Notes: generated from the sequence alone by a model not told the origin. 64,000 nucleotides of DNA from Planctomicrobium piriforme (GCA_945869735.1 CAMBPQ010000011.1:1023-65022); one strand, 5' to 3'; shown: positions 5,999-19,651, counted from the first letter of the stretch. Program-made: numbers and translations.

Positions 5999-6233
5999 CT
6001 CCGACCATGTCTACGCCGACCCCCAGGGGAACGTTGCAGCAACATTCTTTTCCACTCCCACCATGTCGGGTAGTGCGGGGGTTTATGGGAAAATCTAGAG
6101 AGTTTGGCCGATTATGCCTCAGCGCCGCCACCGAGCATGGTCGCCGCGAAGCGCCGGGAGGATCGTTCCGTAGACTAGGCGGGTTCATGGCGCAAGCTGG
6201 CCGCCCGTCGCGATTCCAGGAGCCATCCATTCC

Positions 6234-7364
6234 ATGCCCATTCGCATCGTTCACACGGCCGACAACCACATCGGCCTGCCGTTCCAGCAACACCCCGCCG
6301 ACGTGCGAGACAAGCTCGTCGAGGAGCGGTTCGCGGCCCTTGAGCGGCTCGTCGCGACGGCGAATGATCGGGGGGCCGATTTTTTCGTGGTCGCTGGGGA
6401 TCTCTTCGACTCGCCGCGGGTCACGGTGAAGGACATCAGGCGGACGGCGGCCGTCCTCAAGGGCTTTGCCGGTACAGCGGCCATCGTTGTGCCCGGAAAC
6501 CACGACTTCTGCACCGGCCCGGAAACTGAGGTCTGGAAGCGGTTTCTCCAGGAGATCGAGGGAGCGGGAAACGTCGATCTTCTCACCGATGGCAAGGTGA
6601 AGACGTACGAGGTCGCTGGCCAGGCAGTGCACTTTTTCCCATGCCCGTGCCCCTCGAAGACGGGCCGTGAGCCGACGATCGGCTGGGTGGCCGATGCCGC
6701 CCGGGAGCATCCCGACGGCCTGCGGATCGGGATCGCCCACGGCAACGTGACGGGCCTCAGTCTCGACGCCGAGGGGCAGTACTTCACCATGGAGCCGGCG
6801 GCCCTCGAGTCGGCCGGCATGGCAACCTGGCTGCTCGGCCATGTCCATGTGCCATTTCCGACGACCGAGCAGGGCGAGCGATCTCCCTACTTCATGGCCG
6901 GTATCCACACGCCCAACTCGCTCCGCTGCCACCACGGCGGCTCGGCCTGGTGGATCGAGTGTGACGGCGACCGAGTGGTGCGGTACGAGCGGCTCGCCCC
7001 GGGCCAGATCCGGTTCGTGCGACTGGTGAACGAGGTGTGCTCGGCCGACGACGTCGCCGCGTTGCTGCACGAATGCGAGTCATACGACGCAGCTTCCACG
7101 GTCCTCGACCTGCAGCTCTCGGGGCGGTTGTCGGCGGCGGAGCGCGGCGAGCTCGACGCCGCGATCGAACGGCTACGGCCAGGGTTTCTGACGCTCTCGG
7201 AGGAACGTGACCTCCACGACCGGATCGATGCCGCGCACGTCGCCGCCCGCTACCGCACCGGGGGGCTGGCCCATCGGCTCTTGACCGCGCTGTTGGCTGA
7301 CGAGGAGCATCCCGACGCGGCCACGCTCGCCTACGAGCTGATTGAGGAGGTTGCGCGGCGATGA
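6234..7364 (+). CDS. sbcD: SbcD/Mre11-like metallophosphoesterase (DNA repair exonuclease)
   Basis: MPIRIVHTADNHIG, then FFVVAGDLFD, then VVPGNHDF and GHVH, which are the calcineurin-like phosphoesterase motifs. It overlaps the next ORF by 4 nt. Confidence 0.8.
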   Translation: MPIRIVHTADNHIGLPFQQHPADVRDKLVEERFAALERLVATANDRGADFFVVAGDLFDSPRVTVKDIRRTAAVLKGFAGTAAIVVPGNHDFCTGPETEVWKRFLQEIEGAGNVDLLTDGKVKTYEVAGQAVHFFPCPCPSKTGREPTIGWVADAAREHPDGLRIGIAHGNVTGLSLDAEGQYFTMEPAALESAGMATWLLGHVHVPFPTTEQGERSPYFMAGIHTPNSLRCHHGGSAWWIECDGDRVVRYERLAPGQIRFVRLVNEVCSADDVAALLHECESYDAASTVLDLQLSGRLSAAERGELDAAIERLRPGFLTLSEERDLHDRIDAAHVAARYRTGGLAHRLLTALLADEEHPDAATLAYELIEEVARR

Positions 7365-9784
7365 GGCTCAAGACGATCAAGCTCCACCCCTTCGGGAGAT
7401 TCCCCAACGAGTCATGGGATTTCCACAAGCACCTCGTGGTGATCGACGGCCCCAACGAGCTGGGCAAGACCACGCTGCGGCAGGCGATTTTTCATGCCCT
7501 GTTCACGCCGACAAACCTTACAAAGTCGAAACTCGAGAATCAGAACTCAGTCGGCCGCTGGCTACCGCTGCCGGCGGGCGACCACGCGGCAGTCATGCTC
7601 ACCTTCGACCACGGAGGCAAAACGTGGACGCTCGAGAAGCAATGGGGCGCTGGCGAGTCGAGCTCGCTGAGCGACGGCACGACCTCATTTGCTGATCCGG
7701 AAGTCGTGCAGACGGAACTCGCCGCGATGCTCGCGCACAGCGAGGCGACGTTTCGGCACGTCCTGTTTACTGGTCAGGCTGAGTTGGAAAGCACACTGAA
7801 AGTCATCCAGGAGAACGCGGCCGAGTTACAGGACATTGGCGAGTTGCTACGGGCCGCAGCTGGCGGAGACGCCGACGTGAACGAGCAGCGGCTGCTCAAT
7901 GAGCTCGACGCTCGGATCAAAGCCGCCTTCGGCCGCTGGAATGAGGAACGAGGCAGGCCCGAGTCTCAGAATGGTCAAGAAAAAGGCATCAATAATCGTT
8001 GGATAAAAGGCGTCGGCGGGATCCTCGCGGCGTGGTATTCCTGGCAGCAGCTCATGGCGGAGCACGAGGAGATCCTTGGCACCGAGCGGGAGATCGACCG
8101 ACTGAGCGGTGAGGTGGCGACGATCGAGCAGGCGAATGCCACGGCTGCTGCTTTCGTAGAGCACTTCGGCGGCCTGCGGAACGGCGTGACCGAACGCGGC
8201 GAGCTTGGCGAACGGTTGCGAAGGCTCGAAGGAGAAGAGACTGCGATGGCGGCGGCGTTCGGCAGCTGGCCGCGGGCCGAAGCCGCTATCGACGAGTGGG
8301 AACGCCAGCAGAAAGATCTTCAGCCGCAGCTGATCACGCTCCAGAAAGAACTGGAGAATGCGAAGAGACGGCAGGTCGCTGCAGCCACCCGGCAGGCCTT
8401 CACGGCGGTCGAAGATGCCAAGCGGGCATGGGAGCAGGCGACGGCGGAGCTCGCCAACCATCCGGATCCCGGTAAGGAGCGGCTCGACACGGTCGAGCGA
8501 CTCGAGCGGGTGATCACTGCAGCGGAAAATAAGCTGGCCTCCCGCACACTGGCGTGGCGGATTGAGGCAGAGGAGGCCGGCACGGTTTCGGTCGAGGGAG
8601 GTGTCGAGCCTGCCAGGACCTTGGCCGTGGGACCGGAAACCACGACCGGCACGGCTGAGGCCCGCGTCCGCGTGGTCGCCGGCGGCATCACGCTCACCGT
8701 CGAGAGTGGCGGTGACGACGTGGCCGCGCTCTTCGAGTCGCTGGTCCACGATCGCAAGGCCCTCGCACACGAGCTGGTGGCCTGCGACGCCAAGGTGCCC
8801 AACGACATGCGAATCAAAGCCGAACTGCACCGAGAGGCCGCGAATCAGGCTGACAACCAGAAAGCTTTGTTCGAGGGACGGCTGGCCGGGAAAACTTTCG
8901 AGGAGTGGGCCTCGGAGATCAAGGCGATCGACAACCTGCCGAACGCCAGAGACGTCAACGCGATCGAACAGGCCATCGATGATGTTCACAAAAAGCGTGC
9001 CGACGGCGACGCACGAGCCGCCACGCACAAGCAGTCGATCGAGGATTGGAAAACTACCTACACCGATCATGCAACTGTAGGTGAGAACCTGGTGCAATCG
9101 CGAAGCGTTCTCAAGCAGGTCAGGGAGGAACTCGCCGCACTCCCCAAGCTGCCCGAGGGATTCGATTCGCCAAGGGCGTTCGTCGCGGCGATCGACACGG
9201 CCCAGGCGAGCCAGCTCACGGGCCAGCAGCAACTCACGGTGAAAAAGGCGGAGGCCGCCGCGCTCATGGGCCAGTTGGGAGATCGCCGCAGTGAGGACGT
9301 AGCCGAGAAGGCCGCGGCTGAGAAACGGAAGTTTGAACGAGCGCGGGCCCACGGGCGGGCGTATCTACGGATTCGGCAGGAGTTCGATCGGACCGTGGCG
9401 GCTCGCGAGGAGGATCCGCTTAAGGAGTTTGGCAAACGGGTGTCCGAAATCTTCTCGCAGATCACGGGTGGCGGCGCGGCGCTTGAGTTCGATGGCCAAC
9501 TTCCGGCCACGGTGGTGCGAGGGCCGGTGTCCCTGCGGCCGGAGCGGCTGTCGCATGGCGGCGGCGGCGCGTTGGCCCTGGCCGTGCGGCTGGCGATGGC
9601 AGAAGCCTATCTGGCGCACGGTGGTGGCTTCCTGATGCTCGACGACCCACTGGTTCACTTCGATCCGACGCGGATGGGCATCGCCGTCGACATCTTGCGG
9701 GAGTTTTCCAAGCGCACGCAGGTAATCTTCTTCACCTGCCACGACCACCATGCCGCGCGGCTTCAGAAAGCTGAGCGAAACTGA
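7361..9784 (+). CDS. sbcC: SbcC/Rad50/YhaN-like AAA ATPase with a long coiled coil
   Basis: N-terminal P-loop VVIDGPNELGKTTL, a long E/A/R/L-rich helical middle region, and a C-terminal LSHGGGG signature. Walker B FLMLDDP and an H-loop FFTCHD are also present. Confidence 0.75.
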   Translation: MRLKTIKLHPFGRFPNESWDFHKHLVVIDGPNELGKTTLRQAIFHALFTPTNLTKSKLENQNSVGRWLPLPAGDHAAVMLTFDHGGKTWTLEKQWGAGESSSLSDGTTSFADPEVVQTELAAMLAHSEATFRHVLFTGQAELESTLKVIQENAAELQDIGELLRAAAGGDADVNEQRLLNELDARIKAAFGRWNEERGRPESQNGQEKGINNRWIKGVGGILAAWYSWQQLMAEHEEILGTEREIDRLSGEVATIEQANATAAAFVEHFGGLRNGVTERGELGERLRRLEGEETAMAAAFGSWPRAEAAIDEWERQQKDLQPQLITLQKELENAKRRQVAAATRQAFTAVEDAKRAWEQATAELANHPDPGKERLDTVERLERVITAAENKLASRTLAWRIEAEEAGTVSVEGGVEPARTLAVGPETTTGTAEARVRVVAGGITLTVESGGDDVAALFESLVHDRKALAHELVACDAKVPNDMRIKAELHREAANQADNQKALFEGRLAGKTFEEWASEIKAIDNLPNARDVNAIEQAIDDVHKKRADGDARAATHKQSIEDWKTTYTDHATVGENLVQSRSVLKQVREELAALPKLPEGFDSPRAFVAAIDTAQASQLTGQQQLTVKKAEAAALMGQLGDRRSEDVAEKAAAEKRKFERARAHGRAYLRIRQEFDRTVAAREEDPLKEFGKRVSEIFSQITGGGAALEFDGQLPATVVRGPVSLRPERLSHGGGGALALAVRLAMAEAYLAHGGGFLMLDDPLVHFDPTRMGIAVDILREFSKRTQVIFFTCHDHHAARLQKAERN

Positions 9785-9950
9785 GGTCTTCGTTGGAGGA
9801 GATCCACACGTCTCATGCCGGTGCGTGACCATGACACGTGACGAGAAAAATCCACCGAGCGAAGCCCCCGGTCAACGGCCCCGGCGGGCTGCTTGTGACA
9901 CGACCCACTCCGGCCCGTCGCCGATGAGTAGGTCGGTGAACTCCTTCGCT

Positions 9951-10109
9951 TCGAACGCATTCGACTTCCGTGGATCGCCGGCTCGGGGCGGCAAAATTCT
10001 CGTCGCCGGGGCGAGGATACGCTCCAGGCTCCTCGAGCGTTCGCCGACCCCCTTGCCTCCCTCCTCCAGGCTGCCATCTCGCCGCTCCACCAAAGGCAGA
10101 GGCGGTCTA
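9951..10109 (-). repeat. Family-1 MITE-like repeat, copy A (reverse orientation)
   Basis: Aligns by eye over about 160 bp with 13587-13748 and 50725-50884. Shared cores are gggggtcggcgaacgctcgag and cgacgagaNttttgccgcc. Confidence 0.8.
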
Positions 10110-10157
10110 GTCGGCCGTGCCCTCGAGGTCGAACTCCGTTGCGACCGTGCTGCCGAT

Positions 10158-10672
10158 CTACGATTGCACGAGCCGCGACTCGGCCTGCACGGCGACGTGG
10201 GTGGTCACTTCGCTGGCGAAGTTGACGAGGTCGTAGACCCGGCACTTCACGGGCCATAGCCGCTGGCGGCGAACCGGGAGCGTGTCGAGGTCGGTCAGGC
10301 CGTAGAACTCTTGAATTCGGCCGGTCAGTCGGTCGAAATCCTTGAGTGCCCGGATCTTGTGGGCCGGATCGATCGCCTTCGTCTTCACGAGCTGACGGGA
10401 AAGCCCGTGCGCCTCGCGGACCGACGCTCACGACGACTACGATGCCAGGAGCCGCTCACCGATCGCCGTGAAGCCGTCGGCATGGTCGAAGCCCTCGATG
10501 GCGCGTGTGCCGGGGGTTCTTGCTCGCCGGGACCAAGAGATGTTTTGCGGACAAGCAAGCAGCGCCTTCGCAGCGGCCCGGGAAAGCTCTTCTTTCGCGC
10601 CCAACTCGACATCACGATGTGGACGAAGCTCGTGCAGATCGAGCGTGTCCGAGAGGACAGGGAGATCCGTCT
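10158..10672 (-). pseudogene. Decayed ORF fragments in two minus-strand frames (unidentified gene remnant)
   Basis: Hand translation gives two fragments. The first is DRQTDLPVLSDTLDLHELRPHRDVELGAKEELSRAAAKALLACPQNISWSRRARTPGTRAIEGFDHADGFTAIGERLLAS*. The second, in a different frame, is ASVREAHGLSRQLVKTKAIDPAHKIRALKDFDRLTGRIQEFYGLTDLDTLPVRRQRLWPVKCRVYDLVNFASEVTTHVAVQAESRLVQS*. Both look protein-like, but the first has no convincing start and I recognise no family. Confidence 0.3.
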
Positions 10673-11256
10673 GACGGTCTTATGCGGAGGGCGGACGAAT
10701 CCAATCGGCTGTTCAATCCGTAACGTGGGTAACGTACCGCAACTCTCCTGGTAGTGGGTTGTAAGGATCTTCTTGCGGTGACCTGGGGACTTCATCGAGC
10801 CATCGACGATCTGAGCTGTGTCTGAAGCGGGATGCCCCGCTCCCCAGCCCGCGGCGATGATCTCGCCCACATAATCATCGGCGTTTGGTTTGGTGTGGAC
10901 GACCGCCCGCGTGGCAGTCTTCTCCACGAAGAACACCTCGTCCCAGCCGATGGAGCCAGGATTGATCGCCCGGTTGATCGGGTGATGGTTGCAGGTGCGA
11001 TGCTCGTCAAACGACGCGGCTGCAGGCTGGAGGTGCTCCATTTTCGATAGCGTGCCATCCACTCAGCATGAGCCTGAGCCGCCTTCTCGAGCGCCTTATC
11101 GTAGGTGCAGGGCTTCAGCCTGTGCTGTTGCCGCTGGACGTTGATTCGGCCGAAGACATCGCGGACGAATGGGGCTTCTTGGGCAGATACGGTCACGCCC
11201 GAGGCGGCACGGCCTTGGCCGACGACGCCGTCCAAGGTGCTTTGCAGTCCTGACAC
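10673..11256 (-). pseudogene. CAP/SCP/PR1-like (YkwD-type) domain gene, interrupted by a frameshift
   Basis: The N-terminal half is in one frame from the GTG at 11256: FGRINVQRQQHRLKPCTYDKALEKAAQAHAEWMA. The C-terminal half is in another frame: GEIIAAGWG...SMKSPGHRKKIL. The switch lies at or near an A4 run (plus-strand T4 at 11041-11044). The 3' boundary is uncertain because the frame stays open to 10385. Confidence 0.5.
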
Positions 11257-11260
11257 TTTT

Positions 11261-11962
11261 TTACCTGAGGAGGCTCGCGACCAGTTCAGGCACGCCTTCG
11301 CAAGCGGTCTTGGCGATGCATTCGCAGATGTCGCCGGGCACAAGATCGGGCACCTCGGGATTCACGACGATCCGTCGGGTGCGGCGGGGCGCTGCGTCGA
11401 TGAGCGAGTTGGCTGGGTAGACCTGCAGCGACGTGCCGACGCAAACAAAGATGTCAGCCTGCGACACGATCCTGGCCGCCTCGTCCATCGCAGGCACCAT
11501 TTCTCCAAACCACACGATGTGCGGCCGCAGTTGGCTGCCGAGTGGGCATGTGTCGCCGAGGGCAATGTCGGTGTCGCCAAGGTATTGTGTGTGGCTCGGA
11601 TCCCGCGTGCTCCTGGCGTAAAGAACCTCGCCGTGCAGGTGCAGCACATGCATCGAGCCGGCCCGTTCATGGAGGTCGTCAACGTTCTGCGTGACGATCC
11701 GAACGTCGTAGGCGCTCTCCAGGTCGACGAGGGCCCGGTGCGCGGCGTTCGGCTGTGCCGCCCGCACCTTTCGCCGCCGCTTGTTGTAAAACTCGAGCAC
11801 GAGGACCGGGTCTTTGGCCCAGGCCTCGGGCGTGGCCACATCCTCGACGCGATGACCCTCCCAGAGGCCGCCGTCGCCGCGAAAGGTCTGCAGGCCGCTT
11901 TCGACGCTCATGCCAGCGCCAGTGAACACGACGACATTTTTCCTCGAGACTTCAGCGGACAC
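11261..11962 (-). CDS. cobB: Sir2-family NAD-dependent protein deacylase (short CobB-like form without the Cys4 zinc module)
   Basis: FTGAGMSVESGLQTFRG, TQNVDDLHERAG, HLHG (catalytic His), RPHIVWFGE and GTSLQVYPA. GTG start with AGGAGG 8 nt upstream. Confidence 0.85.
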   Translation of the reverse strand: MSAEVSRKNVVVFTGAGMSVESGLQTFRGDGGLWEGHRVEDVATPEAWAKDPVLVLEFYNKRRRKVRAAQPNAAHRALVDLESAYDVRIVTQNVDDLHERAGSMHVLHLHGEVLYARSTRDPSHTQYLGDTDIALGDTCPLGSQLRPHIVWFGEMVPAMDEAARIVSQADIFVCVGTSLQVYPANSLIDAAPRRTRRIVVNPEVPDLVPGDICECIAKTACEGVPELVASLLR

Positions 11963-11984
11963 GGAAGAGCCTCCTGGTGGTGTG

Positions 11985-13337
11985 CTACTTGATATTCAGC
12001 GCTTCTTCGCCCGCTTGGGCAATGCGTTCGATGACCGCGATCATTTCGTCTTGGCTTGGATGGGGCGATAATCCGGTCGCGGCGGGAGTCGCCGGGTCGA
12101 GCCGCAGCCGGTGTGGCAGTTCGATGCCCGGGTTTTGCCAGAGTTTTGCAAGCCGCGAGGGACTCACGTTGCCGAGCCCCTTGAGCGATAGCGATCCGCC
12201 TGCATGGGAGGCGAGGATATCTGCGACTCGGTCGGTCACGCTCGTGATGCCATCGAGGGTCAGAAGCGGATGCCTCACAAGTTCACGGGCTGTCTCCTCG
12301 GTGAGAGCCGTGATGCCGTTCAACGAGAGTTCTCCTGCTCGGTGTGTCGCCAGGATCGCGGCCACCGGCGGCGTGACGTGCTCGATATTGTTCACAAAAA
12401 GTCCGGAGAGGCCGGGGATGCCCCGTGGACCCTGCTGACTCGCGAGGATCGCAGCAGTGCGTTGATCCAGCGTTGTGAGTCCGCCGAGTAAAAGTGGCCC
12501 GACATGCTGGATGAGCGACGCGAGGTGGTGGTCGCGGATGCCGCTTGGCGGCGAGAGCGAGAGGGATCCTTCGTGCTGGCCGAGGGAGTGCACAACGGCA
12601 TCGGTGATCTCGACGGCATTGAGATAGAGCGGACCTCGATGCTTCGAGAGAAGGTGCGCCTCGGTCGGCGAAAGCGACTTGAGCCCGCGGAGGCAGAGAT
12701 GCCCTGTCCGGCTGCCGAGTGCGTGGGCGGCGGCTTCCTTCAGATGCGTGAGCCGGTGGAGGTGCAGCTTGCCGAAATGCCTTGCAAGGTGCGTCGCCAC
12801 CTCGTCGGGCAGCCAAGCCAGCCCCTCGAGAAACAGATCGCCGCGCTGGCACGACAGGGCGGCTGCGGCACTCGGCGACAGGTGCTTCAAGCCCCACAGG
12901 TAAAGCTCGTTGTCGTGCTGCGCCAGGCCGAGGGCGGCTTTGTCATTGAGGTTCTGGATGCGTTTGAGTGAGAGTTCGCCATCGTGACGGCCCAGCGACC
13001 AGGCGGCTGAGTCGGAGAGCCTTCGGAGGTTGTTGAGCGAGAGCCCGCCGCCTGTGTGCTTCCCGAGTTCGGCAGCGACGGCATCGGTGACGGTCGTCAG
13101 CGTATCGAGATAGAGGTGCCCTCGATGCTGCGCGAGTTGTCGGGCCACGGAGAGCGGGAGGCGGATGACCTCATGCAGGTAGAGATGCGTGGCATAGTGG
13201 CCGATGATACCTTCGGCTGCGTCGCCGGGTGATCGCTCGAGTGAGGCCTCTCCGTAGGTCGCGGCCACGACCGGGTCGAGAGCGTCGTTCGCAAGCGTCG
13301 GCCCCGTCGCCGGAATGGGCCGGCGAAACAGGGCCAC
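11985..13337 (-). CDS. Leucine-rich-repeat-like protein, about 15 tandem 23-residue repeats
   Basis: Visible periodicity with consensus xLxLxGLxxLsxxaAxxLaxHxG, for example ELSLKRIQNLNDKAALGLAQHDN, ELYLWGLKHLSPSAAAALSCQRG and DLFLEGLAWLPDEVATHLARHFG. Confidence 0.7.
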   Translation of the reverse strand: MALFRRPIPATGPTLANDALDPVVAATYGEASLERSPGDAAEGIIGHYATHLYLHEVIRLPLSVARQLAQHRGHLYLDTLTTVTDAVAAELGKHTGGGLSLNNLRRLSDSAAWSLGRHDGELSLKRIQNLNDKAALGLAQHDNELYLWGLKHLSPSAAAALSCQRGDLFLEGLAWLPDEVATHLARHFGKLHLHRLTHLKEAAAHALGSRTGHLCLRGLKSLSPTEAHLLSKHRGPLYLNAVEITDAVVHSLGQHEGSLSLSPPSGIRDHHLASLIQHVGPLLLGGLTTLDQRTAAILASQQGPRGIPGLSGLFVNNIEHVTPPVAAILATHRAGELSLNGITALTEETARELVRHPLLTLDGITSVTDRVADILASHAGGSLSLKGLGNVSPSRLAKLWQNPGIELPHRLRLDPATPAATGLSPHPSQDEMIAVIERIAQAGEEALNIK

Positions 13338-13445
13338 GAGTTCCCGGGCTCGAGCCGCATCAAGGTGGCGGATCCTACTCGTGTATTCCCGCAGGGATCG
13401 CTGGGTTGGTGGTTGATTATTGTTGAAGGTGTTTACTCTTTTCGG

Positions 13446-14510
13446 TCATTCGGCCAAGACGGTCACGTAGAGTGGGGTCGCTGCGTCGAGGGAGGTATCG
13501 AACGCCTCGAAGCGGTGGTGCGAAGCCGCGTGCGGGGCGGAAGCCGTTCCTCCTCCGCGGGCGTCGATCGAGTGGACACGTGGTTGTCTAGATCGCATCT
13601 GCCTTTGGTGGAGCGGCGAGATGGCAGCTTGGTGAAGTAGGCGAGGGGGTCGGCGAACGCTCGAGAAGCCTGGGGCGTATCCTCGCCCCGGCGACGAGAC
13701 TTTTGCCGCCCCCGAGCCGGCGTTCCACGGAAGTCGAATGCGCTCTAGCCACTCGCGGATCGGTTCGATGGATGGCGGTTCGGTTGCCGCGCCGCTCGCC
13801 TGATCACGCTGCTCCCGCTGCCCGATGGCCTCCGTGGCTGCTGCCCGCAGTAGTTTTCGCCAGAGCTTGGCGAAGAGGTGCGGGCTCGCATAGTGATCCG
13901 CATGGCTGAGGACGCCGTTGATCGCCCACACCACGCCGACCGCGCTGCCGCTGGTCTCGGGCAGGGCCTTATCCAACACGGCCGCATAGTCCTCGACCGC
14001 GTCGGTCACGCCTTCGCTTTCGTAGGTGAGCTGCAGGCTGGTGGGGGATTCGGCGTCACTGACCTCCTGCTGAACCGCTTTTACCAGTTGCTCCTGCTCT
14101 TCCGTGATCCTGTCCCACACCTCGCTTTGGCTTTTTGAAAACCTGAGGGCGAGTCGGGCCTTCTTCGACGCGAGAAAGTCCTTGGCTGTGGAGAAGAGCT
14201 TGTCCGACTCCTTGTGGCGGCGGTGCCAGCGCGACCGCTCTACGCAGGAGGCGGGGAGCGGGATTTTTCCCGACCTGGCCGGCACGATGAAGTCGGCACC
14301 GATGGTGCGGTCCTGGCGGCCGCCCTTCACGATGTCGCCTGCTTGGATGAAGAGGTCGACGTTGCCCGTTTCATGAAGCACCGCCGTTTCGGTGGCAATC
14401 GTCTCCTCGAGAACCGCGTAGTCGCGGGCGGAAGAGACGGCCGCTGGCGGGGCGAAGATGAACCACGCGGTCAGGTTATGGACACGAACGGGCTGGCTCA
14501 GCGAGGGCAT
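13446..14510 (-). CDS. ARPP-1 / DUF6569-like protein; the C-terminal third reads through a repeat element
   Basis: NLT..., AGDIVKGGRQDRT, IPLPASCVERSRWH, SQSEVWDRI, VGVVWAINGVL and LFAKLWRKLL match my memory of ARPP-1 family motifs. This has not been verified against a database. Confidence 0.55.
   Translation of the reverse strand: MPSLSQPVRVHNLTAWFIFAPPAAVSSARDYAVLEETIATETAVLHETGNVDLFIQAGDIVKGGRQDRTIGADFIVPARSGKIPLPASCVERSRWHRRHKESDKLFSTAKDFLASKKARLALRFSKSQSEVWDRITEEQEQLVKAVQQEVSDAESPTSLQLTYESEGVTDAVEDYAAVLDKALPETSGSAVGVVWAINGVLSHADHYASPHLFAKLWRKLLRAAATEAIGQREQRDQASGAATEPPSIEPIREWLERIRLPWNAGSGAAKVSSPGRGYAPGFSSVRRPPRLLHQAAISPLHQRQMRSRQPRVHSIDARGGGTASAPHAASHHRFEAFDTSLDAATPLYVTVLAE
13587..13748 (+). 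repeat. Family-1 MITE-like repeat, copy B (forward), inside the ARPP-1-like ORF
   Basis: Best-bounded copy. The ends are tctagatcgcatctgcctttggtgg ... ccacggaagtcgaatgcgctctag, an imperfect terminal inverted repeat of about 24 bp (18/24 by eye). Confidence 0.8.
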
Positions 14511-14639
14511 CGTGCGTACTTCAGAATGAGCAACGCATCAGGAACCAATCCGATGGGCGTCGCCGCCCGGCAGACTGCTGCAACATTCTTTTCGTGAGGA
14601 ACGAGTCCTCACGCACATCCCGCCGACATTTTCATGCCG

Positions 14640-14855
14640 GCGGAAGCACCGTTTGCCGTGCAGTGGCCCGGTTGCCGAAACACCTCTGAGGCGTTTCCAA
14701 CACGTCTTGGGGGACGTATCGTTCCTGATGCTATGTGCACTCTATCCAACGACTTCCTCGAAGACCATCTTTCGGACGGCATCGAGCGTGTCATAGCCGG
14801 GTTCTCACAAACGCCGGGCCGCAACCATGAGGGACCAAGGTTGTCCCTGCCGTAG
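14640..14855 (+). mobile_element. Possible IS630-like transposase C-terminal fragment
   Basis: The + frame reads ...EAFPTRLGGRIVPDAMCTLSNDFLEDHLSDGIERVIAGFSQTPG*. This resembles the extreme C-terminus of IS630/Tc1-type transposases. The similarity is weak and by eye. Confidence 0.3.
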
Positions 14856-14856
14856 G

Positions 14857-15138
14857 TCACAAGGGCGCACGCCGCCGCTTCAACAAAGGTGCAGTCTTGT
14901 TGAGCTCCCGACGCTCTTGCTTCATACGGCGCACCCACGACTCACTCACATCAAACTTCGTCGCAACCTCGCGAGTGCTGCGACCTCTATCGCACTCCAA
15001 CTCAGCCCGCTGCCACTCCGGCAGCGGCAACGTCCCCACTTCGTGAACGACGCTGTCCCAGATCGCGTCGGCGAGTTGGGGTCGCTCTTCGATGCTGAGC
15101 CGGTCGAGCCCCAAGTCACGAAGTGAAACGCTTGCCAT
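14857..15138 (-). pseudogene. Chimeric ORF: truncated addiction-module antitoxin (Unstab_antitox-like) fused to an IS630-type transposase HTH fragment
   Basis: MASVSLRDLGLDRLSIEERPQLADAIWDSVVHEVGTLPLPEWQRAELE is the antitoxin-like part. It is followed by CDRGRSTREVATKFDVSESWVRRMKQERRELNKTAPLLKRRRAPL*, which is a transposase N-terminal HTH. Confidence 0.5.
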
Positions 15139-15415
15139 GGAGGTGTCTCCGAATCCGTGTTGGCAACAGAAAGGGAATATACGCCCGTGCACGTATGGTG
15201 GCACGCGGGCGTTGGTGGGTATCGCTTCGAGCGAATCTGGCCGGGACCAAGGCTGTCCCTGCGGGTTCGTGCCCTGCCGGCAGGAAGCCAACCGTCGATG
15301 AGCAAGATGACCCGATTGTCGCGGAGGTGGCTCACGACCAAGGACAAGGTCTACCCGCTCGTCGACTCGGCCCTTTCGATTCCACCTCGAAAAGGTGCCA
15401 CCTTCTTGCTCGCAG

Positions 15416-15489
15416 TACCCTCGACTGGGATCGAACCAGTAACCTTCAACTTCGGAGGCTGACGCTCTATCCAATTGAGCTACGAGGGC
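15416..15489 (-). tRNA. tRNA-Arg (anticodon CCG)
   Basis: The 74-nt sequence GCCCTCGTAGCTCAATTGGATAGAGCGTCAGCCTCCGAAGTTGAAGGTTACTGGTTCGATCCCAGTCGAGGGTA folds by hand into a cloverleaf. The anticodon loop is CTCCGAA and the T-loop is TTCGATC. Confidence 0.9.
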
Positions 15490-15588
15490 ATATCCGACGC
15501 CTGGAGTCTAGCAGCCTCGGTAGGTCGGAAAAAGCAGTGGCCTTTCGCGGCCGCGGCTGGCAGTGACGGCCGAGTGACGGGCCGATGG

Positions 15589-16602
15589 TCAGGCCGACCG
15601 CTTGAGAGCTGGGGCCCGTGAATCGACGCGCGGTCGGGATGGTGACTCGTGCGAGCCGTCGACCCTGAGCGTGCGGGCCGATGTCTCTCCAGCTACGGGA
15701 TGGCGGGCCTCTTGGCTCATAAGAATCGCGAGTTGCCGTGTGCGGGGCACGCATGAACCAAACTGCACGAGCGCCGCGAGCCGGCCCGCAAGCATGCCGA
15801 ATGTGCCCCAGGGGACCGTCGCCGCCGCATGCCGCAGCACCTCGCCGGCGTGGGCGATCAGAGCAGGCACCAGACGTTCGCAAGATAGCGATCGCCAGAA
15901 GAGCCGCTCGGCATGGAGGCCGGCCGTAAACCCGCCGCAGCACTGCTGGGCCGGACCGCTCACGACCCGTGAACTGGTCTCGACGATCACGTCGAGCTTC
16001 GCCGCTGTGAGCGCCGCCGCCATGTCGGCGGCCGCGAGCGAGTCGCCGCATGCCGTCGAGAAACCGATGGTGGTCAGGACCTCGGCCCGCCAAAACCCTG
16101 CCTCGATGATCGGAGCCGACGGCGCTACGCGCATCGTGATGCTGCCATCGTCGTTACGATGCGGCACCACCGGCACGCTCCTGCCCCCTGCAGCGCGGTA
16201 AATGCCAGCCACTACGGGCTGGTCGCAATCGCCCTCGGAAACAGCGAGCGGCACCACGGCGCCGACGTCGCCGCGAGCAAAGTGGTCAAGCGCCCGATCG
16301 GTCCAGCCCGCGGTGGCCTTCCAGCCCGCGGCGAGCACGTGGACCACGTCGCCCGTACTCGCGGCCGCACCGGCGTTGATGCACTCGACGAGGCTCACAG
16401 CCTGAGGCACGTCGACGAACGTGACCTCGTCGCGGATGTTCCACGGATCGTCATAGGGGACGCCGAGCGCGACGATTACGTCGCAGGCGTCGGGCCGATG
16501 TTCGAGGACGCTGATGAGCGTTTCCTCGAGCGCAACGACGTTGGTCGCGGGAACTACGATCGAAAGCCGGCGCGGCCGCCCTGCGTAAGCCTGCATCGAC
16601 AT
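15589..16602 (-). CDS. Glycosyltransferase family 2-like protein
   Basis: LSIVVPATNVVALEETLISVLEHRPDACDVIVALGVPYDD is a GT-A fold N-terminus. The rest is not diagnostic. Confidence 0.55.
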   Translation of the reverse strand: MSMQAYAGRPRRLSIVVPATNVVALEETLISVLEHRPDACDVIVALGVPYDDPWNIRDEVTFVDVPQAVSLVECINAGAAASTGDVVHVLAAGWKATAGWTDRALDHFARGDVGAVVPLAVSEGDCDQPVVAGIYRAAGGRSVPVVPHRNDDGSITMRVAPSAPIIEAGFWRAEVLTTIGFSTACGDSLAAADMAAALTAAKLDVIVETSSRVVSGPAQQCCGGFTAGLHAERLFWRSLSCERLVPALIAHAGEVLRHAAATVPWGTFGMLAGRLAALVQFGSCVPRTRQLAILMSQEARHPVAGETSARTLRVDGSHESPSRPRVDSRAPALKRSA

Positions 16603-19138: not shown

Positions 19139-19594
19139 ATGGCCGTCACCACCCAAGAGACGATTACCCTGCTTCTCGAGAGCTACCAGATGGAGCTCGA
19201 GACGGTGCTCAACTACCTCGCCAACAGCACGAACCTCGACGGCGTGCGGGCCGAGGAAATCAAGAAGTCGCTCGCGGCCGACGTGACCGGCGAGATCGGT
19301 CACGCCCAGCAACTTGCCAACCGCATCAAGCAGATTGGCGGCCACGTGCCTGGCTCGAAGAGCCTGGTGTTCGGCGGTCAGATCCAGCCCGTCACCGTCA
19401 CCACCGACGTCGTCGGTGTGATCAAGTCGGTGATCGCCGCCGAGGAGGCCGCCTGCGCGCAGTACAAGAAGATCATCAGGGCGGTCGACGGCGAGGATTA
19501 CGTCACCCAGGATCTCTGCATCCGTTTGCTGGCCGACGAAGAGGGGCATCTGGTGCAGTTCAAGGGCTTCCTGAAGGAATACACCACGGGCTAA
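19139..19594 (+). CDS. Ferritin-like / DPS-like domain protein
   Basis: ELETVLNYLANS..., GEIGHAQQLANRI, EEAACAQYKK and ADEEGHLVQFKGFL give a four-helix-bundle E/H ligand pattern. The internal ATG was chosen to avoid overlap with the preceding gene. Confidence 0.7.
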   Translation: MAVTTQETITLLLESYQMELETVLNYLANSTNLDGVRAEEIKKSLAADVTGEIGHAQQLANRIKQIGGHVPGSKSLVFGGQIQPVTVTTDVVGVIKSVIAAEEAACAQYKKIIRAVDGEDYVTQDLCIRLLADEEGHLVQFKGFLKEYTTG

Positions 19595-19596
19595 GG

Positions 19597-19651
19597 CGCA
19601 TTCGCTTTTGGGAGAGCGGCGAGATGGCACATACGTTGGATGCGCTCTCAG
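19597..19651 (+). repeat. Family-1 repeat, miniature derivative (ends only)
   Basis: gcgcattcgcttttgggagagcggcgagatggca...gttggatgcgctctc retains the left arm and right terminus of the 160-bp element. It lies in a convergent intergenic gap. Confidence 0.55.

Follow-up and report, generated by a model that had tools for sequence, protein, structure and literature searches.

Four genes lie in series on the minus strand, within positions 10,673 to 14,510, of a 64,000-nucleotide stretch of DNA from Planctomicrobium piriforme (GCA_945869735.1, CAMBPQ010000011.1:1023-65022; the whole stretch is hereafter termed the window). They encode a protein with an ARPP-1 (DUF6569) domain, a leucine-rich repeat (LRR)-like protein, a Sir2 family sirtuin and a CAP/SCP domain protein. 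An earlier note on this DNA had proposed that all four might act together in sensing or modification dependent on nicotinamide adenine dinucleotide (NAD), and the question raised by the locus is whether its genes form a unit or are simply neighbours. The ARPP-1, LRR and Sir2 genes were found to be best explained, with a probability of roughly 0.55 given to this reading from sequence comparison, as an operon module headed by a structured leader RNA and representing one configuration of a modular family of accessory operons. The earlier proposal is partly supported, in that recurrence, a shared leader and transfer as a block indicate a single unit of these three genes, while the CAP gene forms no part of it.

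Organization of the locus

The genome from which the window originates (G000) is a draft of 3.2 Mb with a G+C content of 65% and a completeness of 95%, and that of its sister species is referred to as G022. The ORFs (open reading frames) described by the earlier note were all recovered on the minus strand, at 13446-14510 (354 aa), 11985-13337 (450 aa) and 11261-11962 (233 aa), with the CAP frame opening at a GTG codon at 11256. As annotated, they are separated by gaps of 108, 22 and 4 nt, as had been reported, but the 108-nt gap between the ARPP-1 and LRR genes is an artefact, since the conserved LRR frame begins 18 nt after the ARPP-1 stop codon and the ancestral LRR start was thus located earlier. 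The features of the operon are as follows.

14752..14862, minus strand, conserved promoter-proximal region (BLASTN conservation to 14862 in G125 and G149; putative function)
14508..14751, minus strand, structured 5' leader RNA of approximately 240 nt that ends at the ARPP-1 ATG (covariance model, covariation)
13446..14510, minus strand, altered ARPP-1 (DUF6569) gene (PF20208, E=6.4e-41)
13587..13748, minus strand, dispersed repeat inside ARPP-1, resembling a miniature inverted-repeat transposable element (MITE) (approximately 300 genomic copies, alignment)
11985..13427, minus strand, LRR-fold protein, annotated ORF start GTG at 13337 (N-terminal alignment, AlphaFold2, Foldseek)
11261..11962, minus strand, intact CobB/Sirt5-like class III sirtuin of the 'type A' lineage (PF02146, alignments, tree)

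Recurrence of the operon and its cargo families

Examination of gene neighbourhoods, a check that the earlier note had suggested, revealed that the order ARPP-1, LRR, Sir2 recurs with tight spacing in approximately ten related genomes or contigs. The complete arrangement with the same spacing was identified in G022, G060 (locus L059), G149 (locus L058) and L041. Partial arrangements consist of ARPP-1 followed by LRR (L039 and L040), LRR followed by Sir2 (G125 and G070, with a remnant in G089) and ARPP-1 followed by Sir2 without an LRR gene (G119, locus L060). In L040, a Sir2 gene of a second lineage (type B) lies divergent from small108, ARPP-1 and LRR, while in G107 the genes small-A and Zn-ribbon precede Sir2.

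Approximately 33 copies of the leader were found across at least six genera, many of these copies being from close relatives and most of their contigs being short. The genes downstream of them belong to seven families, which occur in a constant order and with the same start codon position: small108 (a small AP2/integrase-like protein), small-A (approximately 110 aa), ARPP-1, Zn-ribbon (a protein of approximately 90 aa), DUF6717, LRR and type A Sir2. Neighbouring genes were annotated using tblastn with a fixed set of queries, such that cargo genes not on this list could escape notice. The configurations observed were small-A-Zn-ribbon-DUF6717, DUF6717-LRR, Zn-ribbon-DUF6717, small-A-ARPP-1-Zn-ribbon-DUF6717, small-A-Zn-ribbon-Sir2, small-A-LRR-Sir2, LRR-Sir2 and ARPP-1-LRR-Sir2. 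As far as searched, the operon family occurs only in a single family of freshwater Pirellulales (Planctomycetota). There is good support for the joint regulation of ARPP-1, LRR and Sir2 and for their inheritance together as modules.

The name ARPP derives from an association with ADP-ribosylglycohydrolase (ARG)-phosphatase proteins, and ARPP has been counted among the parts of ARG-centred systems that process ADP-ribose, with planctomycetes among the organisms carrying them (Iyer, Burroughs, Anantharaman, Aravind 2022, Viruses 14:1977, PMC9503650, section 3.8). A fusion of an ARG domain with a dual-specificity phosphatase domain (ARG-DSPc) was identified in 6 of 176 genomes of the family, and it lies 7 kb or less from a leader operon in G067, G148, G060, L036 and L039. 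The ARG and rhodanese-phosphatase partners that the earlier note had named for ARPP-1 are absent from the G000 genome; no orthologue of ARG-DSPc is present there, with only weak matches of 23-33% identity on other contigs, and no coupled phosphatase occurs within the window cassette. Pfam scans of the window ORFs tested, which did not include every small ORF, detected no Nudix or WYL-HTH (helix-turn-helix) regulator.

A number of observations weigh against a dedicated three-gene module. Among 24 genomes of the genus, LRR orthologues were detected in 14, Sir2 in six and ARPP-1 in two, with all three present only in G022. The Sir2 gene is inactivated with an open LRR frame in G022, G149 and L041, ARPP-1 has been precisely deleted in G125 and the LRR gene is absent from G119. 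As each component has been lost or broken in some relative while the others persist, none is obligatory, and because many of the observations come from close relatives, the independent events are few. Sir2 genes of type A also occur outside of leader operons (G051, G106, G094), and the sirtuin has ordinary CobB motifs and is under purifying selection (dN/dS, the ratio of non-synonymous to synonymous substitution rates, of ~0.1 within genus g28), like a housekeeping deacylase. Furthermore, the ARG-centred systems are defined in PMC9503650 by the absence of a coupled sirtuin or ADP-ribosyltransferase (ART).

Under the most probable of the competing explanations, a promiscuous leader would serve as a portable expression cassette for unrelated cargo, Sir2 being a captured paralogue of CobB and the genes having regulation in common rather than biochemistry. 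The independent loss of components is in keeping with this, as is the lack of a match in PADLOC for any cassette or cargo protein, and capture by duplication is plausible given that type B Sir2 is found in the usual chromosomal neighbourhood of the operon (DTW, ARG-DSPc, CIA30). Arbitrary capture is, however, difficult to reconcile with the same seven families occurring in the same order behind the leader in at least six genera, with the tight coupling of the ARPP-1/LRR and LRR/Sir2 junctions, or with the rare ARG-DSPc fusion being nearly always near a leader operon. This explanation is a credible one, yet it is considered less probable than that of an operon module of recurrent composition.

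A structured leader RNA upstream of the operon

The approximately 290 nt located 5' of the ARPP-1 ATG were found to be 77-87% identical in seven loci (G022, L059, L041, L058, G125, G070, G119), whichever gene follows. The leader is 84-94% identical in approximately 20 of the 176 family genomes and gives weaker matches in a further 14, against a synonymous divergence of 0.45-0.6 for the genes of the cassette when the window is compared with g28. It is present as a single copy in the G000 genome, was not found in 141 genomes from 29 other families of the order, and no family in Rfam matches it.

RNAalifold predicted nine helices, with the final hairpin pairing the Shine-Dalgarno (SD) sequence GGAG (GAAG in the window) with GCUC. 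In a MAFFT alignment of 22 sequences, 12 pairs showed double-sided changes compared to 3.5±1.5 in shuffled alignments. With 31 leaders, double-sided changes were observed for 30 of 69 pairs (15.3±2.2 shuffled) and 97% of cells could pair compared to 32-44% in slid controls, this larger alignment having been fitted to the model and being therefore biased towards structure. A covariance model, whose E-values are rough, matched the window leader over its full length with 260 bits and also recovered diverged full-length copies. Helices 4 and 5 and their loops are invariant, G-U wobbles are consistent with the sense strand only, and the minimum free energy predicted for the window leader is -117.8 kcal/mol (z=-7.4). 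The long-range helix 2 proposed by RNAalifold lacks compensatory support, while a local hairpin that uses the same 5' strand possesses it. This suggests two competing folds at the 5' strand of the leader, which are treated as alternatives with neither being asserted.

Its conservation, compensatory changes, sense-strand polarity and position upstream of a coding gene are those of a cis-regulatory structured RNA, as which the leader may be classified. Expression is probably gated at the initiation of translation, because the final hairpin sequesters the SD sequence.

A -10-like box is located at approximately 14739-14744, being TAAAAT in relatives and TAGAGT in the window, and the conserved promoter-proximal region (14752-14862) contains a CTATGACAC box. 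A perfect inverted repeat, AGGGAC-N7-GTCCCT, was observed at approximately 14830-14848 on the minus strand, around 90 nt upstream of the -10-like box, and is kept in G125, G149, L061 and G070; it may be an operator. The leader additionally contains an AT-rich 14-mer, GAAAAGAATGTTGC (minus strand, 14580-14593), in the unpaired linker between helices 7 and 8, the GUUGCAGCA core of which is nearly invariant. A second copy of this 14-mer is located at 6039-6052, upstream of recC.

The ARPP-1 gene and its inserted repeat

The identification of the first gene as ARPP-1 was confirmed with a score of 141 bits for PF20208 against a cut-off of 27, and it is the sole copy in the genome. The domain is incomplete, with profile positions 5-257 of 297 being matched. 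Residues C89, Q56 and Q66 are invariant in the ARPP-1 alignment (A1) and are present in the window protein; an absolutely conserved Cys and Gln have been described for ARPP-1 (PMC9503650). Mapping against G022 identified an in-frame deletion of 33 nt at approximately 14366 which, compared to six homologues of 316-320 aa, removes 11 conserved residues (VNELLIENxGD) immediately before the invariant DLFIQAGD motif.

Residues 256-308 of the protein (an insertion of 54 codons) are encoded by a copy of a dispersed repeat that has been inserted in frame within a poorly conserved linker, with the conserved C-terminus (HRFEAFDT...VLAE) still in frame despite the insertion. This MITE-like repeat of approximately 155-162 nt is present in about 300 genomic copies, which is extremely many for a genome of 3.2 Mb, and it is common to several genomes of the genus (G022, G009, G011, G007, G016). 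The copy in ARPP-1 forms an inverted pair with one at 9953-10119, and a further copy is found in the window at 19582-19629. A composite transposon, with the repeats at 9953-10119 and 13588-13745 bounding the CAP, Sir2 and LRR genes, was considered and rejected, as these are two of the roughly 300 dispersed copies.

A scan of metagenomes with the ARPP-1 protein identified five loci only. In the metagenomic protein P0121, ARPP-1 (residues 1-234) is fused to DUF6717. More distant ARPP-1 genes in Verrucomicrobiota and Gemmatimonadota were found to have none of these neighbours.

The LRR protein

The repeat protein belongs to a conserved family of approximately 480 aa with more than 100 clusters of homologues, none possessing a Pfam domain, and it has no match in Pfam (even at E<=10), NCBIfam, PADLOC or, using phmmer, the PDB. 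An AlphaFold2 model built with 45 homologues (mean predicted local distance difference test score, pLDDT, of 89.4; predicted template modelling score, pTM, of 0.84) is a solenoid of approximately 15-16 beta-alpha units. All 50 matches listed by Foldseek for this model are of the LRR type with a probability of 1.0, among them SHOC2, Leptospira LIC12759, FBXL2 and internalins. As predicted from this model, the protein is an LRR solenoid, in agreement with the LRR-like call of the earlier note, with no LRR model of Pfam matching it.

The family has a conserved N-terminus (SLREYTxxIRHLDAxRARELV), the codons for which lie 5' of the annotated GTG. In relatives, translation starts at a TTG or GTG located 18 nt past the ARPP-1 TGA and preceded by the SD sequence AAAGGAG; in the window, this has become AAAAGAG, and the start codon at 13425-13427 is mutated to TTC in both the window and G022. 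At this junction (13425-13448), as in L028, L039-L041, L058 and L059, the ARPP-1 TGA and the LRR gene share the same frame, six codons apart, in every copy. The 28 codons upstream of the annotated start are still conserved in G000 and G022 (dN/dS of 0.16) despite the TTC. Stop codon read-through and a non-canonical start are both possibilities for LRR initiation in these two genomes.

At native loci (L036, L044, L046, L047, L049, L053, L055), the gene most often found immediately 5' of LRR is DUF6717 (PF20475). The DUF6717 and LRR families, both uncharacterized, seem to be restricted to these planctomycetes.

The Sir2 sirtuin

The Sir2 gene is separated from the LRR gene by 22 nt and is preceded by the AGGAGG SD sequence that had been reported for it. 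Its product matches PF02146 over profile positions 1-180 of 180 (E=7.6e-42), upholding the Sir2 assignment, and gives full-length alignments with E. coli CobB (1s5p, E=2e-56), the 6rxj deacylase series (~1e-56) and also Sirt5. By our own reading of the alignment, the GAGxSxESG, TQNVDxLHE, catalytic HG and FYNxRR acyl-lysine motifs appear intact. The description of a short CobB-like form was borne out, as was that of a single Cys where the Zn ribbon is expected: the Zn-binding Cys4 tetrad is lacking, a single Cys being present in the stretch that aligns with the Cys-rich part of CobB. The protein falls under every NCBIfam equivalog cut-off (the best being NF001755, 217 bits versus 318), and none of the defence Sir2 models of PADLOC matched it at E<=0.01.

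No second cobB was found in G000, the window Sir2 being the only sirtuin of that genome; yet the gene is not universally conserved, having been detected in 11 of 42 genomes of the genus and 53 of 150 genomes of the family. Two paralogous lineages of sirtuin exist in the family, with G060 carrying both on one contig, and in the Sir2 tree the window copy is of type A and nests among the sequences of genera g28 and g25, apart from the copies native to its own genus. The view that this gene is the sole housekeeping cobB in conserved synteny is partly true, in that there is only one Sir2, but was rejected given that most genomes of the genus have no Sir2 and the window copy sits in a clade of paralogues from other genera.

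Sirtuin genes of this Pirellulales family were repeatedly found to be broken by in-frame internal deletions or truncation (G022, G149/L058, G089, G068, G013, G020, G001, L041). Sirtuins are missing from most genomes of the genus, and the lineage seems still to be losing them.

Horizontal acquisition and decay

Relationships differ between the cassette and the core genes, as given below by percentage identity to the window.

G022 (sister): LplA/HEAT 96-97%, LRR 91%, Sir2 90-91%
G023 (same genus): LplA/HEAT 88-89%, LRR 57% (native copy), no Sir2 found
Genus g28: LplA/HEAT 61-66%, LRR 78%, Sir2 90%

Copies native to the genus are 47-57% (LRR) and ~72% (Sir2) identical to those of the window. G022 carries the cassette LRR gene in addition to a native LRR paralogue, the latter with DUF6717 and small108. 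In both G000 and G022 the cassette adjoins tRNA-Arg with antitoxin and insertion sequence (IS) debris, while past Sir2 the flanks differ, with G022 running into the counterpart of G000 contig C45. The cassette has been transferred between genera as a block and is in decay in G000, which agrees with the accessory character that had been attributed to this stretch.

In the window, this decay comprises the change of the -10 box from TAAAAT to TAGAGT, the change of the leader SD from GGAG to GAAG, the loss of 33 nt from ARPP-1 and its MITE insertion, and the loss of the LRR start together with the weakening of its SD; Sir2 has remained intact. In G022, a deletion of 75 nt has taken the invariant Cys out of ARPP-1, approximately 486 nt more are gone from this gene, and Sir2 has lost residues 93-163. 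Internal deletions of Sir2 also occur in G149 and G089, with a truncation in L041, and ARPP-1 has been excised in frame in G125 (MASLS|PSLRDHT). Between G000 and G022, dN/dS values were 0.23-0.35 for the cassette genes (LRR 0.26) versus 0.10-0.16 for LplA/HEAT, whereas the same cassette genes gave 0.12-0.16 within g28. This contrast indicates that constraint on the cassette is relaxed, but not gone.

The CAP pseudogene and flanking regions

The remaining features of the locus are listed below.

10385..11256, minus strand, CAP/SCP pseudogene (frameshift near 11041-11044, degenerate 3' part)
14857..15489, minus strand, tRNA-Arg(CCG), at 15415-15489, with antitoxin and HTH debris (Pfam Unstab_antitox, HTH_23)

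The CAP frame opens 4 nt past the Sir2 stop codon. The frameshift noticed earlier was verified, with the PF00188 match divided between profile positions 3-44 of 117 in the first frame and the remainder in the second. A CAP gene follows Sir2 in no other copy of the operon and was not found in the five relatives searched. It is an unrelated pseudogene outside of the operon family, and its inclusion as a member of the proposed system was abandoned.

The variable region ends at tRNA-Arg, beyond which conserved synteny (GT2, LplA, HEAT) resumes; contig C86 of G022 aligns with the window from 15413 onward. The same antitoxin adjoins operon copies in G070 and G089. In G125 (L082, C1, ~6000-16000), leader-LRR-Sir2 has as its neighbours a patatin-like phospholipase of 696 aa, an IS (rve integrase) and a serine recombinase of the large type, a setting which resembles a mobile or defence island.

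Elsewhere in the window (6234-9784, plus strand), a calcineurin-like nuclease (376 aa, 6234-7364) is paired with an SMC/Rad50-like ATPase (807 aa), with weak PADLOC matches to LmuB and mad3. This SbcCD-like pair is absent from G022 and is 56-60% identical in G023/G024, where core genes are 64-89% identical. The calcineurin-like gene resembles SbcD/Mre11, but the pair looks accessory rather than a housekeeping SbcCD.

Proposed function and alternative explanations

Under the operon module reading, ARPP-1, LRR and Sir2 would be transcribed as one unit behind the leader of approximately 240 nt, whose SD hairpin would probably gate the initiation of translation in response to a ligand or factor. 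The leader-ARPP-1-LRR-Sir2 cassette entered the common ancestor of G000 and its sister species from another genus of the family, was inserted beside tRNA-Arg and is now eroding.

The comparisons above show the architecture of the operon, the covariation of its leader, its recurrent cargo, the transfer and the decay, while its function is inferred. It can tentatively be suggested that the module handles NAD-dependent protein modification. The LRR protein could be a scaffold that binds the target, from which the sirtuin would remove acyl groups with release of O-acyl-ADP-ribose, and ARPP-1 may act on the ADP-ribose sugar; in relatives, the neighbouring ARG-phosphatase fusion could contribute. 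Two of the seven cargo families touch on NAD/ADP-ribose chemistry, the ARG-phosphatase is a frequent neighbour, and an LRR protein is a binding scaffold of a generic kind. Considerably more doubtful is the extension of this suggestion in which the leader would be a riboswitch for a signal derived from NAD or ADP-ribose, for instance ADP-ribose itself or O-acyl-ADP-ribose. The seven-family operon, its LRR protein serving to bind targets and its ARPP-1 and sirtuin serving as enzymes, would then be a system gated by RNA for reversing or sensing the ADP-ribosylation or acylation of proteins. If true, this would make the operon the planctomycete equivalent of the ARG-centred systems, which are regulated by proteins.

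A sensor-effector or defence role could likewise be envisaged. In its full form, ARPP-1, LRR, Sir2 and CAP would be an NAD-consuming anti-phage system in which LRR would be the sensor and Sir2 an effector with NADase activity; this would suit an accessory, horizontally acquired site beside a tRNA with toxin-antitoxin and IS debris, the patatin-like, IS and recombinase neighbours of the G125 copy and the assignment of ARPP to predicted conflict systems in PMC9503650. Such a system is nonetheless unlikely: CAP never accompanies the cluster elsewhere, and the cassette is decaying in both genomes of the lineage (G000, G022). The Sir2 protein itself is alignable end-to-end with CobB/Sirt5, keeps the FYNxRR substrate motif as read by us, carries no extra sensor or effector domain and matches no Sir2 model of PADLOC.

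Residual synteny or chance adjacency, to which the loose synteny of GT2, LplA, HEAT, recBC and DTW at comparable divergence might point, was largely rejected as highly improbable, given that the cassette flanks differ even in the sister genome, that the block has moved between genera and that one covarying leader is common to all of the other configurations.

The only published context of ARPP-1 is the computational prediction of systems that counter ADP-ribosylation, and the domain is now placed in a compact, recurrent and horizontally mobile family of operons, where it is joined by an LRR protein and a dedicated sirtuin of the CobB type behind one covarying leader. This family offers a small gene set for co-expression, a candidate RNA sensor whose ligand could disclose the stimulus of the module and a natural deletion series that indicates which parts are dispensable. 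It also illustrates how a paralogue of a housekeeping-type sirtuin can be recruited into an accessory operon. For G000, the cassette represents a decaying acquisition, the intact Sir2 of which is the only sirtuin of the cell.

Comparison with known systems

Among defence systems with SIR2 (Thoeris ThsA, DSR1/2, SIR2-HerA, SIR2-pAgo), the locus finds parallels in its Sir2 domain, its accessory mobile location and an adjacent putative binding module. It differs from them in that the window Sir2 is CobB-like, with no fused sensor domain, no PADLOC match and no indication of NADase activity.

With CobB/Sirt5 deacylases, the window protein (~233 aa) is alignable over its full length, with motifs that read as intact. 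Unlike these enzymes, it lacks the Cys4 tetrad, scores below the equivalog cut-offs and belongs to a paralogue lineage found in leader-controlled accessory operons. Sirtuins of the window type are also dispensable, with most genomes of the genus lacking a sirtuin.

With regard to ARG-centred systems, G000 contains neither an ARG nor a phosphatase partner, and the sirtuin is the last gene of the operon. Control here is apparently exerted by an RNA leader, with no Nudix/WYL regulator seen in the ORFs scanned, and section 3.8 of PMC9503650 does not list LRR, DUF6717, small-A or Zn-ribbon as components. Features common to both are the ARPP-1 domain, including the conserved Cys and Gln, the occurrence in planctomycetes and, in several relatives, an ARG-DSPc fusion within 7 kb of the operon.

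In comparison to translational riboswitches that sequester the SD sequence, the leader is set apart by its lack of an Rfam family and by its cargo, which is drawn from seven defined families rather than from one metabolic pathway. It is like them in being a multi-helix leader of approximately 240 nt with strong covariation, invariant internal loops and a terminal SD hairpin, in having a 5' segment with two alternative pairings and in preceding variable downstream genes.

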